Assembly: GCA_045643185.1 (NCBI GenBank)
Contig: JAZUKH010000279.1
Location: 3,301-67,300 of the forward strand
Direction of reading: 5' to 3'
DNA length: 64,000 nucleotides
Source: Myxococcota bacterium
GTDB lineage: Bacteria; Myxococcota_A; Bradymonadia; UBA4248
The notes beneath the pieces are model-generated. The model ran no database searches. It was given only the letters and a program-made list of their open reading frames with translations, and had not been told where the DNA came from. How positions within the stretch are numbered: the first letter of the stretch is position 1; each line of letters begins with the position of its first letter. Below, one piece after another: positions 2,944-52,523 of this stretch. The position numbers and the translations under genes were made by a program.

Positions 2944-4506
2944 ATGATCGACGTAATTTTTGAAAACGATGACATCCTTGTTGTGAACAAACCCACGGGC
3001 ATTCCCACGCACGCCCCGAATGACGAAAAAAAAGGCGTCGTCGAGCTGCTGCAGGACGAACGCGGCATAAAACTCGGCGTGCACAGTCGACTGGATGAAG
3101 GCACGAGCGGCACGCTCGCGTTTTCGAAATCAAGACTGGGTGCTGAAATGCTCACAAAAGCCTTCGAACTCAAAGACGTTCGCAAGTATTACTACGCGAT
3201 CGTGTGCGGCAAACCGGCCAAAGACGCGGGCGAGTGGTGTCACAAGCTGACACATCAAAACGGCGTGACGTTTGAAGACGAGAAGGGGAAGGTTGCGAAA
3301 TGCAAATACCGCGTTGTGACCACGTGCGCCCCCTTCACGCTGCTTGAGCTGCAGCTTCTGACGGGCATGACGCACCAACTGCGCGTGCAATGCGCCCTTG
3401 AAGGCATGCCGATTCTGGGCGACGCGCTGTACGGCGGCGGCGATCAAGCGCCGCGCCTGTGCCTGCATGCGCACAAACTCATTTTGATGAGCGAAAAAAA
3501 TCTGCCGCACTTTGTCGCGCCACTGCCTGACATCATGGTCAAACCAAGTCCAGAGAAGCTGTTCAACTTTATTTTTAAGTCGATTGCCGGACGACTTGGC
3601 GCCATGCCTGCGACCGAAGCGATCCGCGTTGCGGTGCCGCAGCACTCCGGGGTGCCTGAGATCCTCGTCGAAAAACTTGCCAACACATTGCTCGTGCGCC
3701 ACCTGGAACCGGCCAAAACCTCGTTGTGGACGGCTGCGTCGCTCGAAGCGCTCATGCGCGTGGCTGACCGAGTGTTTAAATGCAGCCAGAATGCCTATCG
3801 CGTGCACGAATCGCCCGAAAAGTCGAAAGCCTGTCGCGCCTTCGAGCGGGCGTTTGACCAAACGCCTGAACCATTCACGGCGACAGAACTGGGTCAAAAA
3901 TACACGTTTGACCTGACGGGCAATGCCGTGGGCCTCTATCTCGATCAGCGTGAAAACCGTGACTGGGTCATCAAAAATGCCCACGGCAACGTGCTGAATC
4001 TGTTTGCCTATACGTGTGCGTTCTCACTTTGTGCCGCGAAAGCCCAGGCTACGACGGGCACGGTCAGCATCGACGCGGCAAAAGCCGCGCTCAATCGCGG
4101 ACGAACAAACTTTGAAGAAAACGGTCTTTCGCTCGACGGGCATCGTTTTATCGTCGAAGATGCCCAGAAATACCTCGATCGATGCGCCAAAAATGGCACC
4201 CAGTTCGACACGATCATTTGTGATCCACCCAGCTTTGGGCGTTCGGGCAAAGTCGTGTTTTCGCTCGACGACGCGCTGGAAGACCTCGTGATGGGCTGTG
4301 TCCGTGTTGCTGCCCCCGGCGCCACGATCCTGTTCTGCATCAATCACCGAAAGATCCGCTTGTCGCGCTTCAAACAGGCTTTCGAAAAAGCACTCAACGC
4401 CTGTCAAAAACGCACGGCAGCCTTTGAAGCGTTCATCAACGATGACGCGTGTGGTCCGCTCGGCGTTGGCACCGACCTCAAAACCATTCGCGTCACGCTC
4501 AAATAA
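2944..4506 (+). CDS. Fusion protein: RluA-family pseudouridine synthase (N-terminal) plus class I SAM-dependent RlmI/RlmL-like rRNA methyltransferase (C-terminal)
   Basis: N-terminal VVNKPTGIPTHAP…HSRLDEGTSG (RluA catalytic Asp motif HxRLD) and LHAHKL. C-terminal FDTIICDPPSF (DPPxF motif of RlmI-type MTases). Confidence 0.65.
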   Translation: MIDVIFENDDILVVNKPTGIPTHAPNDEKKGVVELLQDERGIKLGVHSRLDEGTSGTLAFSKSRLGAEMLTKAFELKDVRKYYYAIVCGKPAKDAGEWCHKLTHQNGVTFEDEKGKVAKCKYRVVTTCAPFTLLELQLLTGMTHQLRVQCALEGMPILGDALYGGGDQAPRLCLHAHKLILMSEKNLPHFVAPLPDIMVKPSPEKLFNFIFKSIAGRLGAMPATEAIRVAVPQHSGVPEILVEKLANTLLVRHLEPAKTSLWTAASLEALMRVADRVFKCSQNAYRVHESPEKSKACRAFERAFDQTPEPFTATELGQKYTFDLTGNAVGLYLDQRENRDWVIKNAHGNVLNLFAYTCAFSLCAAKAQATTGTVSIDAAKAALNRGRTNFEENGLSLDGHRFIVEDAQKYLDRCAKNGTQFDTIICDPPSFGRSGKVVFSLDDALEDLVMGCVRVAAPGATILFCINHRKIRLSRFKQAFEKALNACQKRTAAFEAFINDDACGPLGVGTDLKTIRVTLK

Positions 4507-7124: not shown

Positions 7125-9149
7125 ATGCTCAATTTAGTAAACCTGTTACTGGTTTTGACCATATCTGCCATCATGACGGGCAGCAATGCGAATGTTGGCC
7201 CAGGCGGACCGGGCATGATGCCGCCACCCGGCGGACACGGCGGACCAGGCATGCCGCCACCGCCACCGATGATGCACGGCGACCTGACCGGCAAGACCGG
7301 TGAATTTATTCCCGTTCCAGAAGTGAACGTCATGCCCCCGCTTGAAGCCGAACCCACCTTCGATGCCTCTCAGTGTATTGCCATCGACCTCGCCCATGCC
7401 AAATCCCCCAACGACAACCTCGTGATCGTCAAAAACGACAAAGATGATCCGACCCAGATCGAGATCAAACTCGCCGTTGACAACGCCTGCATCAAACTCG
7501 TCGGTGCCTGGAACGGCAGCGTCGTTTTCAAAAATCCAAACAGTTACAACGCCAACGTCATTTTGGACAACGTCAAGCTGACCGCCAAAGACGGCGCTCC
7601 CGCTTTTCTCAAACTCAAAAGCTCCAGAAAAGACGCTGGTGTCCGCTATAACCTGCATTTGGTCGGTCAAAACACCATCGAAGGCGGCTACACAAAAAAA
7701 TCTAACAAAATCATTGAATGTGAACCGAGCCTCGACATCACCGGCACGGGCAGTTTGAACGTCATTGCCCACTATAAAACTGGCATTGACGTCGGCGACG
7801 CACTCAAGATCTACAACGGCACGACGCGTATTACCGTCGATCGCACAGAAAACACCGTTTGGGCTGCCAAAGATGACTCCGACCAAGTCGAAATCGAAAA
7901 AGGCTTCGGCATCAAAGCCACGAACAGCTTTGAAATGGTCGGTGGCGCACTCGTCATCAATGGACACGACACCAAGATCGACGACGGCTACCAGACGCGA
8001 GGCATCAAAGTCGACGGCAGTGAATCTGACTATGGCGCCGGTAAAGGCTTTATCAAGATCTCCAACGGCGATGTCGTCATTCAAACCGATGGCAAGGGCA
8101 TGTCCGCCGGTTGGAAAGTAAGCGAAGACGCTGAAACGCCGACCACGTCGGACGACCCGATACCCGACGTCATGATCTCCGGCGGTCGCTTCAGGATCAC
8201 GACGTTTAGCACGCCGATCGAGTCAATGGGATTCCCCGGTCAGAAAAAGGAAGTCGACCCCAACGCGACACCAGACCTTAGTCCCGAAGGCATCGAAGCC
8301 AAGCACCACCTCACGATCACAGGTGGCGAATTTCTTATTCGCACGACCGATGACGGCATTCAGGCCGCCGAAAAAGTCACGTTGGCCGGCGGCACCGGCA
8401 TCGTCATGTCTCCGGGCAACGACGCAGTCGACAGCAACGGCGTCATAGCCATCGACGGCGGCACCTGGGCGATCTTCGGCTCTGGGGCGCCTGAAACCGG
8501 GCTGGACGCGGATTCTTCCAAAAATGTCTCATACAGCGGCGGCTGGCTCTTCGCCATGGGAGGCGATAACAACGCGCCCGGCACGGTCACCGCGCCCGGC
8601 TCGTTCGTTCAAAAATCCAATGGCGGACATGGTGGACCCGGCGGACATGGCGGTCCCGGCAGACATGGCGGACCAGGCGAGATGATGCCGCCACAGGATG
8701 GCATGGGCGGACCCGGCGGACGACCCGGTGACATGATGCCGCCACCAGGTGGCATGGGCGGACCCGGCGGCGAACAGGTCAAACTGGCCGGCAAATACAT
8801 CGCCGTCACAGCCGTCGATTCTGACGACGTCATTGCCGCAGTACGTGTGCCCGACAGCTACGAAGGCGGCTCCGGAATCCTCGTCCTCAACGACGCCTTC
8901 GTCAAAGACACGGTCTATACGCTCCACATCGGCCCAGACCTCCAGGCTGCGTCCGACGCGACCTGGTATGGCGACGTCATTCTGAACGGCAATGCCAAAG
9001 TCTCGGGCGGCGAAAGTGAACCCGTCACAGGCGGCCTTTCGACCGGTCACGACATGGGACCGGGCGGTCCCGGCGGTCATCGAGGCCCGCGCGGTCAACA
9101 AAGTCGCGCGGCCAAGATCATGAACGCCATCATTATGTCGATCCGCTAA
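7125..9149 (+). CDS. Secreted beta-helix-like protein with Gly/Pro/Met/His-rich low-complexity termini
   Basis: Signal peptide MLNLVNLLLVLTISAIMTGSNA. N-terminal GGPGMMPPPGGHGGPGMPPPPPMMHG. C-terminal GGHGGPGGHGGPGRHGGPGEMMPPQDGMGGPGGRPGDMMPPPGGMGGPGG and …GHDMGPGGPGGHRGPRG. The central region has repeated ITxxGG/IxIDGG strands, possibly a Cthe_2159-like carbohydrate-binding beta-helix. Confidence 0.5.
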   Translation: MLNLVNLLLVLTISAIMTGSNANVGPGGPGMMPPPGGHGGPGMPPPPPMMHGDLTGKTGEFIPVPEVNVMPPLEAEPTFDASQCIAIDLAHAKSPNDNLVIVKNDKDDPTQIEIKLAVDNACIKLVGAWNGSVVFKNPNSYNANVILDNVKLTAKDGAPAFLKLKSSRKDAGVRYNLHLVGQNTIEGGYTKKSNKIIECEPSLDITGTGSLNVIAHYKTGIDVGDALKIYNGTTRITVDRTENTVWAAKDDSDQVEIEKGFGIKATNSFEMVGGALVINGHDTKIDDGYQTRGIKVDGSESDYGAGKGFIKISNGDVVIQTDGKGMSAGWKVSEDAETPTTSDDPIPDVMISGGRFRITTFSTPIESMGFPGQKKEVDPNATPDLSPEGIEAKHHLTITGGEFLIRTTDDGIQAAEKVTLAGGTGIVMSPGNDAVDSNGVIAIDGGTWAIFGSGAPETGLDADSSKNVSYSGGWLFAMGGDNNAPGTVTAPGSFVQKSNGGHGGPGGHGGPGRHGGPGEMMPPQDGMGGPGGRPGDMMPPPGGMGGPGGEQVKLAGKYIAVTAVDSDDVIAAVRVPDSYEGGSGILVLNDAFVKDTVYTLHIGPDLQAASDATWYGDVILNGNAKVSGGESEPVTGGLSTGHDMGPGGPGGHRGPRGQQSRAAKIMNAIIMSIR

Positions 9150-17766: not shown

Positions 17767-17782
17767 TGCACGCTTTATTTTG

Positions 17783-17862
17783 GGCGGGGGAAGTCTCCCC
17801 CTACGCCGCTATTGGCGGCGAAATCGCTCGCCAATACGCGTCTACCCCCTCGCCTGACAGGG
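17783..17862. repeat. Palindromic intergenic repeat family A
   Basis: gggggaagtctCCCCCTACGCCGCTATTGGCggcgaaatcgctcGCCAATACGCGTCTACCCCC. Confidence 0.7.
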
Positions 17863-33663: not shown

Positions 33664-33895
33664 GTTTTAGGCGCGGCTATTTCATACGCCGCGCCCGCGT
33701 CGCTTCTCCCTCGCTGGAGACGCAAAATTTGCGTCTCTACGCTCGGTCAATACGCGCCGCGTTTTTCGTATTCACAACACAACCAGGAGAAGGGGTCGGC
33801 GCGTATTGGCGATCTGGTCATATCGGTATTGCATCCCCCTTGCTTAAATGACCAGATTGCCAATAGCGACGTAGGGGAAGGCATTCCCCTCCCAT
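33664..33895. repeat. Cluster of family A palindromic modules (about 230 bp, at least four hairpin units)
   Basis: GCGCGGCTATTTCATACGCCGCGC; cgcgtcgcttctccctcgct; GGAGACGCaaaatttGCGTCTCtacgctcggtcaatacgcgc; ggggtcGGCGCGTATTGGCgatctggtc…gaccagatTGCCAATAGCGACgtaggggaaggcattcccc. A partial inverted copy lies at 52615..52712. Confidence 0.75.
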
Positions 33896-47555: not shown

Positions 47556-47953
47556 AATATGTCCGTTTGCGAAAAAAAACCGTCACATTGCCAACATCAC
47601 TTGGCAATATAAGGTATGGGGACTTTATGGAAACACTCGTGTAGGTCTTACAACTACATCTTAAAATATCACCAAATTATGACCAAAACCACTGGGCCCC
47701 AAAAATACGCCATGGCGAAAAAAAACACGTCACATTGCCAACATCACTTGGCAATATAAGGTATGGGGACTTTATGGAAACACTCGTGTAGGTTGCACAA
47801 CTACATCTTAAAATATCACCAAATTATGACCAAAACCACTGGGCCAAAAAAAATACGCCATGGCGAAAAAAACCGTCACATTGCCAACATCACTTGGCAA
47901 TATAAGGTATGGGGACTTTATGGAAACACTCGTGTAGGTCTTACAACCACATG
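47556..47953. repeat. Tandem direct repeat, 147-bp unit, about 2.7 copies at about 97% identity. Each unit contains the palindrome TTGCCAAcatcacTTGGCAA
   Basis: Units begin at about 47569, 47716 and 47863 (gcgaaaaaaaacNcgtcacattgccaacatcacttggcaatataaggtatggggactttatggaaacactcgtgtaggt…). Between the calpain-like gene start at 47292 and the GHMP kinase stop at 48025. Confidence 0.85.
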
Positions 47954-48024
47954 CTAATAAGCAATTAAACACGCCTACGCGGTATCGACAGATTCCAGCA
48001 ACTTATCGACCGTTTTCCCATTGT

Positions 48025-48984
48025 TCACACAGGCGCATAGATCAAACTGCGAATATATGACAAACCAAGCTTATTCCAAGCCGTGATGATACGTTGAATA
48101 CGATTTTCCGGCGTAATCGCCATAACGAAGCCGCCCGCGCCGGCCCCTGTCAGTTTAGCCCCATAAGCCCCAGCCTGTTTAGCAGCACGAACGGCAGCGA
48201 CGATGTCTGGCGTCGACGCGCCGATCTGCTCCAGCAAAGCCTGCGCGCGCGTCATTTGTTCCCCAATGGTACGCGCATCGCCACGAGCCATAGCCTGCAT
48301 GACCTGATCACACACATCGTCCGATTTACGTATCAATTCCGCGAGCCAGTCAGGTTCGTCCCGCTTGAGATCACGAAGGCATTTAAAGGCTTTCTCACCG
48401 TTTTGGCGCGCCCCCGTCGAGCCGATCACAAAGTACAGTGGTGCCACGTCAAAATCGGGCACGAATTGCAACGGCTCGTCACCACTATGAAACATGATCG
48501 GGCATGCACGCGACACAGCTATATTGTCGACCCCCGAAACAGGACCGTGCCAGCTATTCTCAAGCTGCTGACTGTAAAAATCACGGTACGCACGACCAAC
48601 ATCGTTCTTGCCAACATATTCCAAAAAAGTATCCACCAGCGCGCACGCTAACGCAGATGAGGACCCCAAGCCTTGACCGATTGGAATGCTGCTCACGACC
48701 TGACAATCAAGCGATTTTAAAACACTTTCTGGCTGAATCGTCATTTTACAAAGCGTTTTAAGCAAATTGACCACATGGATCTGACACTGATCCGTTTCTT
48801 CCTTCGAAACAGCCACGTCATCATCAAATGCCACCGAAACATGTGGGCCTTTTTTGTTATCAAGCGTCTTCATCGTGACTCGTGTGGAAAAACACTCCGC
48901 AGGCATCACCACACATTTGCCGCCGTGAACGACAAAATGTTCACCACATAAAATGAGCTTGGCATGAATACGCGTCGTGGTCAT
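48025..48984 (-). CDS. GHMP-family kinase (mevalonate kinase-like)
   Basis: KLILCGEHFVVHG (N-terminal GHMP motif) and PIGQGLGSSSALACAL (PxGxGLGSSAA ATP-binding motif). RBS aagagga lies before the ATG at 48984; the 49059 start in the ORF track is an extension. Confidence 0.7.
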   Translation of the reverse strand: MTTTRIHAKLILCGEHFVVHGGKCVVMPAECFSTRVTMKTLDNKKGPHVSVAFDDDVAVSKEETDQCQIHVVNLLKTLCKMTIQPESVLKSLDCQVVSSIPIGQGLGSSSALACALVDTFLEYVGKNDVGRAYRDFYSQQLENSWHGPVSGVDNIAVSRACPIMFHSGDEPLQFVPDFDVAPLYFVIGSTGARQNGEKAFKCLRDLKRDEPDWLAELIRKSDDVCDQVMQAMARGDARTIGEQMTRAQALLEQIGASTPDIVAAVRAAKQAGAYGAKLTGAGAGGFVMAITPENRIQRIITAWNKLGLSYIRSLIYAPV

Positions 48985-49224
48985 GGCATTCCTCTTGTCA
49001 ATTTCCGTTACTCGCACAAAACGATCGCTTTTATATAACCCAATAAGTCCAAAAAACAATGCACTTCATCATTAAAAAATCGAGTTATTTTTCATTTTAT
49101 GACCTGAATAATGTCCTAATACCAGTAAAAACGCAAAAGCCCCCGGTCAGACAGGCTCGGGGGCTAATGTAAATGTCCAAAAATAACCTTATTGGACACA
49201 GATCGCTATGGCAGCGACACCAGC

Positions 49225-49980
49225 TTATTCAGCGGCTTTGATGATGGCTGCGAAGTCCGCTGCTTTGAGCGAAGCGCCACCGACAAGTGCACCGTCGATG
49301 TCTTTCTGACCAAGGATCTCTTTGGCATTCGCAGCTTTGACGCTACCACCATACTGAATGCGCATCGCTTCAGCGTTATCGGCACCAAAGATTTCGGCGA
49401 GTTTGGCACGAATAGCAGCGTGAACTTCCTGAGCCTGATCGGGCGTCGCGGTTTTGCCCGTGCCGATAGCCCAAACCGGTTCATAGGCAACAACAACGCG
49501 AGCAGCTTCGTCTTTTGTCACGGTGGAAAGACCGTTCACGATCTGGCCGAGAACGACGTCGAGTGTCTTACCAGCTTCGCGTTCGGCGAGGGATTCACCA
49601 ACGCAGACGATCGGCGTGAGATCATTATCGAGAGCCGCACGAACGCGTTTCGCCACGGATTCGTCAGTTTCACCAAAATACTGACGGCGTTCGCTGTGAC
49701 CGATGATCGTGTGGGTCACGCCCACATCTTTGAGCATATCAGCGCTGATCTCGCCCGTGTAAGCCCCAGATTTAGCATAAGAGATGTTCTGGGCGCTGAC
49801 TTCAATGTTTGAACCTTTAAGGATGTCGACGACATCAGCGAGGCAAGTGAAGGTCGGAGCCACCGCGATCTCGACATTTTTGACGTCCGCAACGAGCGGT
49901 TTGAGGGCTTCAACAAGCTCTTTAGCCGCAGCACGCGTGTTATTCATTTTCCAGTTACCGGCAATAAAGGGTTTACGCAT
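49225..49980 (-). CDS. tpiA: Triosephosphate isomerase
   Basis: MRKPFIAGNWKMN, IGHSERR and VAYEPVWAIGTG are canonical. RBS aaggaag. Confidence 0.9.
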   Translation of the reverse strand: MRKPFIAGNWKMNNTRAAAKELVEALKPLVADVKNVEIAVAPTFTCLADVVDILKGSNIEVSAQNISYAKSGAYTGEISADMLKDVGVTHTIIGHSERRQYFGETDESVAKRVRAALDNDLTPIVCVGESLAEREAGKTLDVVLGQIVNGLSTVTKDEAARVVVAYEPVWAIGTGKTATPDQAQEVHAAIRAKLAEIFGADNAEAMRIQYGGSVKAANAKEILGQKDIDGALVGGASLKAADFAAIIKAAE

Positions 49981-50081
49981 TTGATTCTTCCTTAAGCGAT
50001 TGGCCATAAACGGCAAAAAAACAATTTAAGAAAACAAAAGGACCCCATGGAAGGGATCCTTTTGTTTAACTGATCATGAAA

Positions 50082-51344
50082 TTACTTGGCGATACGAAGC
50101 GCTTCAACGCCGGGGAGTTCCTTGCCTTCGACGAGTTCGAGGGAGGCACCACCACCAGTGGAAACGTGCGTGACTTTGCTGTCAAGACCGAACTGACGAA
50201 TGGCAGCAGCGGAGTCGCCACCACCGACGACCGTGCAACCCGTGGATTCGGTCAACGCCGTGGCAACGGCGATCGTGCCAGCAGCATAACGCGGATTTTC
50301 GAAAACACCCATGGGGCCGTTCCAGAAGACCGATTTGGCTTTCTTAACAACGTTAGCATAGATCTCACGCGTTTTGGGACCAATATCGAGGCCCATCTGG
50401 CCATCGGAGAAGTTTTCAACGACCGTGCAAGGCGTCGTATCGTCGAGAGCCGTCGAAACAACGTGATCGACAGGCAGGAGAAGTTCGCATTTGGAGTTCG
50501 CTGCTTTTTCGAGGATCGATTTAGCAACGTCCATAGCATCCGCTTCAACACGGCTCGAAGCAACGTTCACGCCTTTCGCAGCGAGGAGCGTGTAAGCCAT
50601 GGCACCACCAATGCAGATCTGATCGCATTTTTCAATCAGGCTTTCGATAACACCGATTTTGTCGGAAACCTTGGCACCACCGAGAATGGCGACATACGGA
50701 TGTTCCGGATCATAAACGATGTTGCCGAGGAACTTGATTTCTTTCTGAAGAAGGTAACCACAGGCTTTGTTATCGCCGAAAGCGGGAACCATTTTCGCCA
50801 TAGAGGCATGAGCGCGGTGGCAGGTACCAAAAGCATCGTTGATATAGACATCGGCGAGGGAAGCAAGCTGAGCTGCGAATTTCTTCTGGTTCTCTTTCAC
50901 GACTTTCTTAGCCGCATCTTTTTCTTCATCCGTAGCAAATTTGCCACGGGGTTTGCCCTCTTCTTCCTCATAGAAACGGAGGTTTTCGAGAAGAAGGATC
51001 TGGCCCGGCTGAAGTTTTTTGGACATTTCGACAACGCCGTCACCCACGCAGTCATCAGCAAAGATAACTTCACGTTTGGGCATCAATTCGGAGAGGCGAT
51101 CAGCAACGGGTTTGAGCGAAAATTCAGGGCTGGGATTGGCTTTCGGACGACCAAGGTGAGAAGCAACGATGGGATAACCACCATTGGCAAGGACGTAATT
51201 GATCGTGGGGATCGCCTGACGAATACGGAAATCGTCGGTGATCTTGTCGCCATCGAGGGGAACGTTGAAATCGACGCGAATAAAAACGCGTTTGCCTTTG
51301 AGGTCGAGGTCTTCTACGGTTTTGATACCATCAAGATAAGCCAT
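50082..51344 (-). CDS. pgk: Phosphoglycerate kinase
   Basis: KRVFIRVDFNVP, SHLGRP and GGGASLE are canonical PGK motifs. RBS aaggag. Confidence 0.9.
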   Translation of the reverse strand: MAYLDGIKTVEDLDLKGKRVFIRVDFNVPLDGDKITDDFRIRQAIPTINYVLANGGYPIVASHLGRPKANPSPEFSLKPVADRLSELMPKREVIFADDCVGDGVVEMSKKLQPGQILLLENLRFYEEEEGKPRGKFATDEEKDAAKKVVKENQKKFAAQLASLADVYINDAFGTCHRAHASMAKMVPAFGDNKACGYLLQKEIKFLGNIVYDPEHPYVAILGGAKVSDKIGVIESLIEKCDQICIGGAMAYTLLAAKGVNVASSRVEADAMDVAKSILEKAANSKCELLLPVDHVVSTALDDTTPCTVVENFSDGQMGLDIGPKTREIYANVVKKAKSVFWNGPMGVFENPRYAAGTIAVATALTESTGCTVVGGGDSAAAIRQFGLDSKVTHVSTGGGASLELVEGKELPGVEALRIAK

Positions 51345-51446
51345 GGGAAAGTCTCCTTATAATATTCGAAATAATCAAATCGAAAAAAAGAGCCAGAGCC
51401 CGTTACGGGAACTCTGGCTCTAAAGCACAATTAAGCAGTCATGAAA

Positions 51447-52523
<1,077 letters not shown>

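Follow-up and report, generated by a model that had tools for sequence, protein, structure and literature searches.

The window, i.e., the whole stretch of 64,000 nucleotides analyzed here, contains a tandem array in the 756-bp intergenic region between a GHMP-family kinase gene (48025..49059) and a gene for a calpain-like cysteine protease (45475..47268; 597 aa, ATG at 47268). All genes around the array are located on the minus strand. The kinase is the last gene of a conserved cluster composed of gap (51447-52523), pgk (50082-51344), tpiA (49225-50016) and the kinase itself; in the direction of transcription the array follows 72 bp behind the kinase stop codon (48025-48027), and the calpain-like gene lies downstream of it. 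A first-pass annotation of this DNA had placed the array between the same two genes, and this part of the description stands; the distance to the calpain-like ATG is about 300 bp. The kinase is identified as a mevalonate kinase by TIGR00549, with 167.9 bits against a cut-off of 163.05. Its database copy has a length of 319 aa, corresponding to a start at 48984. Genes for tRNA or tmRNA were not found.

Canonical intrinsic terminators and sigma-70 promoters are used elsewhere in this genome. The gap promoter, TTGACA-18-TATACT, scores 11/12. Between gap and pgk lies a strong canonical terminator (51389-51421, minus strand) with a 13-pair stem, a folding energy of -22.8 kcal/mol and a U7 tract, which suggests either a largely separate transcript for gap or its attenuation. 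A promoter-like site of the calpain-like gene, TTGCTA-16-TGcTATAAA at 47305-47332, was recognized by eye and is absent from the output of the promoter scan. As to the source of the DNA, the phosphoglycerate kinase (PGK) is 83-90% identical to proteins of metagenome-assembled genomes (MAGs) labelled Myxococcales, Myxococcota or "Proteobacteria", and these MAGs stem from gut samples of cattle, goat, deer, buffalo and other origin. These matches point to an uncultured, gut-associated lineage of Myxococcota. The protein clusters of both genes flanking the array have a single member each, from a single NCBI contig, which indicates that the species has been sampled once.

According to Tandem Repeats Finder (TRF), the array covers positions 47569-47952 with a period of 147, 2.6 copies, 94% matches and a score of 701. 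A repeat search recovers three copies that lie 147 and 146 bp apart in the same register. Copies 2 and 3 share 95% pairwise identity over full units, and identities range from 94 to 99% across the 87-88 nt which copy 1 has in common with the others. The 20-mer TTGCCAAcatcacTTGGCAA (TTGCCAA-N6-TTGGCAA) occurs exactly three times, at 47588-47607, 47735-47754, and 47881-47900. With up to three mismatches allowed, no further site was found in the 64-kb window, where the chance expectation is 0. The perfect DNA arms of this palindrome measure 8 bp (ATTGCCAA/TTGGCAAT) around a 4-nt centre and are intact in all three copies, each of which is flanked by a run of seven to eight A residues in plus-strand view. 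Thus, the tandem repeat described in the first-pass annotation is real. Its figures of about 2.7 copies and about 97% identity were roughly right, and so was the assignment of one 20-bp palindrome to each unit, except that the arms are 8 bp rather than 7 bp long. A recent duplication or homogenisation had been proposed there as well, and the copies are indeed young or homogenised. That the array is not a CRISPR also holds: its 147-bp units are contiguous and without unique spacers, whereas CRISPR arrays consist of repeats of approximately 25-40 bp separated by unique spacers.

Read on the minus strand, to which all of the following parts refer, the array has the order body-linker-body-linker-body, followed by a partial linker, and each unit divides into a body of 88 nt and an AT-rich linker of 59 nt. 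Body 1 (47866..47953), whose first position marks the 72-nt distance from the mevalonate kinase stop codon, comprises a 5' hairpin (47933-47951), an unpaired stretch, the predicted terminator stem-loop (47876-47905) and a U7 tract (47866-47872). Linker A1 (47807..47865; 59 nt), which contains the palindrome CGCCATGGCG, comes next. Body 2 (47719..47806) has its 5' hairpin at 47787-47805, with the loop GUGC instead of GUAA, and a U8 tract behind its predicted terminator stem-loop (47730-47759). Linker A2 (47660..47718) leads to body 3 (47572..47659), in which the 5' hairpin (47640-47658), an unpaired stretch (47615-47639) and the predicted terminator stem-loop (47583-47612) again precede a U8 tract. 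The small hairpin at the body start reads UGUAGUU-GUAA-GACCUACA, and the unpaired stretch of approximately 25 nt (CGAGUGUUUCCAUAAAGUCCCCAUA) separates it from the terminator stem. At its downstream edge the array ends in a degenerate partial linker (47538..47571; TTTTGGTCGTAA vs TTTTGGTCATAA), a similarity that is weak, as 21 of 1000 shuffles score equally well. The sequence preceding body 1 shows no resemblance to the linker. The outer flanks of the array are diverged or unrelated, unlike the 88-nt bodies.

The few differences between the copies are spread over bodies and linkers alike, the divergence being about 4-5% in both. Bodies 1 and 3 differ by one A-to-G change and by the length of the U-tract (U7 vs U8). 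Through the A-to-G change, body 1 has G:U in place of A:U in its 5' hairpin; on the plus strand, this would be a C:A mismatch. Body 2 has a clustered change in the same hairpin, where GUGC replaces the loop GUAA and U:A the closing pair U:G, and in addition GG is replaced by GUG ahead of the U-tract. Linkers A1 and A2 are distinguished by two substitutions and one indel, the latter in a T/G run. Compensatory double changes number 0 and one-sided pair-preserving changes 2, in three near-identical copies that are too alike for covariation.

The palindrome reads differently on the two strands. A terminator scan reports a 12-pair stem with a 6-nt loop, followed by CGG or CGTG and T7-8, in all three units and on the minus strand only. 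The stem of the minus-strand RNA extends to 14 pairs, made up of the 8-bp perfect arms, four pairs including two U:G, and two basal C:G pairs, which are directly abutted by the tracts of U7, U8, and U8. The minus-strand fold has an energy of -18 kcal/mol, compared to -9 to -12 kcal/mol on the plus strand, where the fold is weaker because the U:G pairs become C:A mismatches. Six other clear terminators in the window fold with -15 to -23 kcal/mol, and the hairpin of the array falls within this range; with only three G:C pairs in its core (five including the two basal C:G pairs), its stem is more AU-rich than theirs. Predicted terminator 1 is located about 120 nt downstream of the kinase stop codon, on the same strand. 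The first-pass annotation left the strand out of account, although both flanking genes lie on the minus strand; its "A-tracts" correspond to the U-tracts, and its "palindrome" to the stem, of the predicted terminator.

With a probability of roughly 0.55, we regard the palindrome and A-tract of each unit as a Rho-independent terminator of the minus strand, as predicted from its sequence, and the array as a local, tandem amplification (threefold) of the terminator-bearing 3' region behind the gap-pgk-tpiA-kinase cluster. Termination itself, as well as a redundant or fail-safe role of the additional copies, is what we infer from this anatomy. If the prediction is correct, a transcript of the kinase gene would fold the 14-bp hairpin, meet the tract of seven to eight U and be released at copy 1, and copies 2 and 3 would stop residual read-through. 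Jointly, the three copies would insulate the calpain-like gene, which seems to own a promoter. The RNA products would be 3'-UTR or read-through fragments of about 90-180 nt, and the most likely origin of the extra copies is slippage or unequal recombination. The weakness of the promoter-like sequences in the linkers (at most 8/12, compared to 11/12 for gap) fits the view that mainly read-through would reach copies 2 and 3. Palindrome and A-tract would then be a terminator viewed from the wrong strand, leaving no reason to seek a novel regulator or operator system, and the array would be a fairly ordinary feature, found in this genome only.

Natural terminators arranged in series are known, e.g., T1-T2 of E. 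coli rrnB. The array resembles rrnB T1-T2 and intrinsic terminators in general in its stem-loop with U7-8, its co-orientation with the preceding gene, its position soon after the stop codon and its serial arrangement. It differs from rrnB T1-T2 in being built of near-identical 147-bp direct repeats, by which about 110 nt of non-terminator sequence are duplicated too, and from usual intrinsic terminators in its long, AU-rich stem with G:U pairs. Some observations speak against the terminator array, among them the AU-richness of the stem and the lack of a canonical terminator at this position in relatives. Direct repeats of 147 bp are recombinationally unstable, yet the three copies differ by 1-5%, which hints at selection or homogenisation and is left unexplained if the copies are a redundant by-product. 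The upstream edge of the repeat coincides with the start of the 5' hairpin, and the body has the classic layout of an sRNA, which a plain terminator does not need.

The first-pass annotation had read the palindromes as sites of a dimeric regulator, and three of them at 147 bp as a phased operator or enhancer array for the calpain-like gene. The arms are indeed perfect in all three copies, and a spacing of 146-147 bp corresponds to approximately 14 helical turns and would align the sites along one face of the helix, which is compatible with phasing rather than evidence of it. However, each palindrome abuts a U-tract in the direction of transcription, and the extension of the stem by G:U pairs is a feature at the RNA level and meaningless for a DNA site. 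The calpain-like gene has a single promoter-like element, the one recognized by eye, and the three sites are located upstream of it at distances of about 250-550 bp; the closest palindrome is separated from this element by about 250 bp and from the ATG by about 320 bp. Between 45868 and 48267 there is no sigma-54 promoter of the -24/-12 type, at up to three mismatches, which such an array could serve. The palindrome recurs nowhere else in the window at the same tolerance, and the adjacent genes encode a kinase and a protease, not a regulator. A hairpin with U7-8 on the strand of the genes, together with the missing sigma-54 promoter and the missing further sites, makes an operator array very improbable.

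A short perfect inverted repeat within each direct repeat is also found in a plasmid partition site. The sopC site of the F plasmid consists of 12 direct repeats of 43 bp with 7-bp inverted arms, and to this extent the array is comparable. Unlike sopC, the array is chromosomal, has a far longer period and lacks an adjacent partition or regulator gene, and its inverted repeat is linked with a U-tract and lengthened by G:U pairs.

We also considered whether the repeat codes for small proteins of the plus strand, where two ORFs of 47 aa and 64 aa have their ATG in AAGGTATGGGG. The period of 147 equals 49 codons, and an ORF spans the whole unit. Against this, a 1-nt indel between the units shifts the frame, such that the C-terminal half of the second ORF differs, the Shine-Dalgarno-like AAGG is only 1 nt away from the ATG, and the ORFs are antisense to every neighboring gene. 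By our estimate, one open frame in six is expected in about 20% of AT-rich 147-bp units. A coding function is thus extremely unlikely.

The layout of the body, i.e., a 5' hairpin, a 25-nt unpaired stretch and a terminator with a U7-8 tail, gives rise to a more tentative alternative to the terminator array, in which the bodies are three tandem paralogs of a trans-acting sRNA gene of about 85-90 nt on the minus strand, with the unpaired stretch CGAGUGUUUCCAUAAAGUCCCCAUACC as the seed. Copy 1 would derive from the 3' UTR of the operon or from an internal site, and copies 2 and 3 would be transcribed from weak promoters in the linkers. The internal site is a promoter-like sequence, TTGGAA-16-TATATT (48079..48052, minus strand), which scores 9/12, is located within the 3' end of the kinase gene and points into copy 1. 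In the linkers, -10-like boxes are found just upstream of the body, namely CATAAT, TAAGAT and, read by eye, TGaTATTTT; those of linker A1, CATAAT and TGaTATTTT, are weak. The changes in the 5' hairpin preserve pairs of the minus-strand RNA (G:U for A:U in copy 1 and U:A for U:G in copy 2), and the bodies are 94-99% identical between outer flanks that are diverged or unrelated. Furthermore, tandem sRNA paralogs have a precedent in the same phylum, pxr of Cystobacter (PMC5568312).

On the other side, the best sigma-70-like pair of the linkers, TGGTCA-16-TAAGAT, reaches 8/12 compared to 11/12 for the gap promoter, and a sigma-54 promoter is missing from 45868-48267. Neither a covariance model, applied to 270 kb of related genomes, nor 20-mer scans of public collections revealed homologs. 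In a duplex scan of the seed against the 64-kb window, the best site reaches -28.9 kcal/mol, and shuffled seeds reach -31.7 kcal/mol. The equal divergence of bodies and linkers (about 4-5%) gives no sign of differential constraint, and true covariation is missing, with 0 compensatory pairs in three near-identical copies. Beyond the layout, nothing supports an sRNA; we hold the three-paralog reading with caution and would not expect it to be correct. A specific version of it, in which the modules are a newborn, lineage-private sRNA family that emerged when the terminator or 3' UTR of the operon was duplicated and the AT-rich linkers gained weak promoters, appears still somewhat more doubtful. 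If true, three near-identical regulators of about 90 nt would capture the birth of sRNA genes through terminator amplification in an uncultured gut Myxococcota, and independent expression of the copies would make them a clean example of terminators seeding new sRNA genes.

The pxr genes of Cystobacter are tandem sRNA paralogs, each with its own sigma-54 promoter, and are conserved across genera (PMC5568312). Our array shares with them the head-to-tail arrangement of intergenic RNA modules of about 90 nt, each ending in a predicted intrinsic terminator. Unlike pxr, it has no sigma-54 promoter and only weak sigma-70-like boxes, and no homolog in other genomes. Membership in the Pxr family was rejected, as no sigma-54 match was obtained in 45868-48267 at up to three mismatches and no Rfam match at E≤10. 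Other tandem sRNA paralogs include PrrF1/PrrF2, OmrA/OmrB, and LhrC1-4, while CpxQ, SroC, DapZ, and MicL are examples of 3'-UTR-derived sRNAs that use the terminator of the upstream mRNA. Copy 1 is similar to the latter group, as it is situated in the 3' UTR of the kinase gene, whose terminator it would share, and as a promoter-like site is present at the end of the coding sequence. Tandem triplication, in contrast, is not known as a feature of this class.

In order to delimit the distribution of the unit, more than 20 related loci were fetched via homologs of the kinase and PGK and searched by blastn and with a covariance model. The covariance model, built from the three bodies, retrieved only these three in 270,772 bases comprising the window and the related loci, and blastn revealed no copy beyond the three in the same material. 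Rfam yielded no match in the array, neither for 46500-49000 at E≤10 nor for the whole window and six related loci at gathering score; its only matches were spurious miRNA models on a neighboring hairpin with 27-bp arms. A 20-mer from the unpaired stretch has 0 occurrences in GTDB representatives, JGI metagenomes, and viral contigs. The 20-mer of the palindrome is likewise missing from viral contigs and occurs in four metagenome contigs, which represent two distinct, coding-looking sequences with nothing in common but the 20-mer itself; these four matches were dismissed as chance, since nothing outside the 20-mer is shared. Plasmids and phages gave no blastn match. The searches for the unit and for the palindrome that had been suggested at the outset thus uncovered no other locus of the unit in the window, in related genomes or in public collections. 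A literature search on the lineage found nothing specific.

Between the array and the promoter-like site of the calpain-like gene, outside the repeat, a composite palindromic element resembling REP sequences is located (47380..47490). It consists of a G5/C5 box (GTAGGGGGAGGCTTCCCCCTCCC), a frame of the form CGCGGCTAT...ATACGCCAC, and a variable inner hairpin, whose arms measure 27 bp in this element. Related MAGs carry further members of this family in the spacers between the genes of their glycolytic cluster. Within the window, further sites are found at 17782-17804 and 33871-33893; among the related loci, they are present in L008 (9814-9902 and approximately 4047-4078), L014 (2421-2451), L007 (3-33), L024 (5720-5778), and L025 (1150-1177). 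A string of 11-13 nt, CAAAAATACGCCA, is common to the linkers (47700-47712, 47851-47860) and the end of the REP-like element (47459-47478). It could be due to chance, or the linker could be derived from the REP-like element.

The proximity of this element and the common string would agree with a selfish origin of the array, as a REP-like unit, a satellite or the remnant of a mobile element, which would play no part in transcription. The lineage is rich in intergenic tandem arrays, and the apparent source of the window is a single contig of one MAG from a species sampled once, such that an assembly artefact with a wrong copy number has to be considered, too. However, the unit occupies a single locus and has no terminal inverted repeats, and it is absent from plasmids, phages, viral contigs, and related genomes. 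The copies also carry distinct variants (loop UAAG vs UGCA, GG vs GUG, and the T/G run), evidence that two or more of them are real. A selfish element or an artefact is accordingly improbable, and the satellite or mobile-element footprint suggested in the first-pass annotation is at variance with the lack of a second locus in the window, the related genomes, GTDB representatives, JGI metagenomes, viral contigs, plasmids, and phages.

REP and BIME units are dispersed in many copies per genome, usually in alternating orientation. Like these, the array is composed of hairpin-bearing intergenic units that have been locally amplified, here beside a REP-like element and with analogous arrays in relatives. 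Unlike these, it is confined to a single locus, forms a direct repeat and carries U-tracts.

The order gap-pgk-tpiA-kinase is kept in at least 13 loci of related MAGs, and the gene that follows the kinase differs. Usually, the next gene in the relatives encodes a Cys-rich lipoprotein, at a distance of 70-120 bp from the kinase. None of these 13 or more loci contains the array. With the cluster preserved, a different downstream gene and no array in the relatives, the array maps exactly to a break of synteny. A canonical terminator had been expected after the kinase in the relatives, but the terminator scan found none there. A terminator at this position is thus not a conserved requirement, and the array is a novelty of this genome. 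The mevalonate-kinase-like GHMP kinase is joined to gap-pgk-tpiA throughout the lineage, and it diverges far faster than the glycolytic enzymes (31-71% compared to 77-96% identity in loci L006-L026).

Arrays of a similar kind are common in related MAGs of Myxococcota/Bradymonadales, where TRF reports intergenic tandem arrays of strongly hairpin-forming units with long periods (36-122 bp). They are unrelated in sequence to one another and to the unit of the window, and have 0 Rfam matches. The array of L015 (5176-5419; 122 bp, 2 copies) directly follows the kinase, that of L020 (2738-2922; 44 bp, 4.2 copies) is located between tpiA and the kinase, and that of L016 (2722-2862; 75 bp, 1.9 copies) lies upstream of gap. 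A second array is present in L020 (265-368), and others were found in L010-12 (L010 120-266; 71 bp, 2.1 copies), L026 (1061-1133), and L027 (11165-11759; 101 bp, 5.9 copies). This lineage thus seems prone to amplify hairpin modules locally and in tandem, which raises the prior that our array is a by-product of the same process. That a poorly known gut lineage of Myxococcota readily amplifies intergenic hairpin modules bears on the quality of MAG assemblies and on the annotation of transcription-unit boundaries.

The calpain-like protein on the downstream side has only two relatives among 5.8 billion proteins, and its Peptidase_C2 match is barely above the Pfam cut-off. Together with the gene of a lipoprotein-like protein of 422 aa (44123-45391), its gene forms a conserved pair, which is also present in a UBA4248-like MAG (L001 10001-12972), with 37% and 22% identity, respectively, and at a different locus. 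The context of the 37%-identical homolog is another one, with no similar array. Upstream of this homolog, a different repeat is located at L001 9591-9685, which can be described as (GAATGCG) x13.6 or as a 21-bp unit with 4.5 copies. Further short-period repeats in the window comprise tandem units of 9, 18, and 51 bp of the GGCGGAC type at 8620-8778 and, inside the 422-aa ORF, four copies of a 21-bp unit (93%) at 44149-44232.
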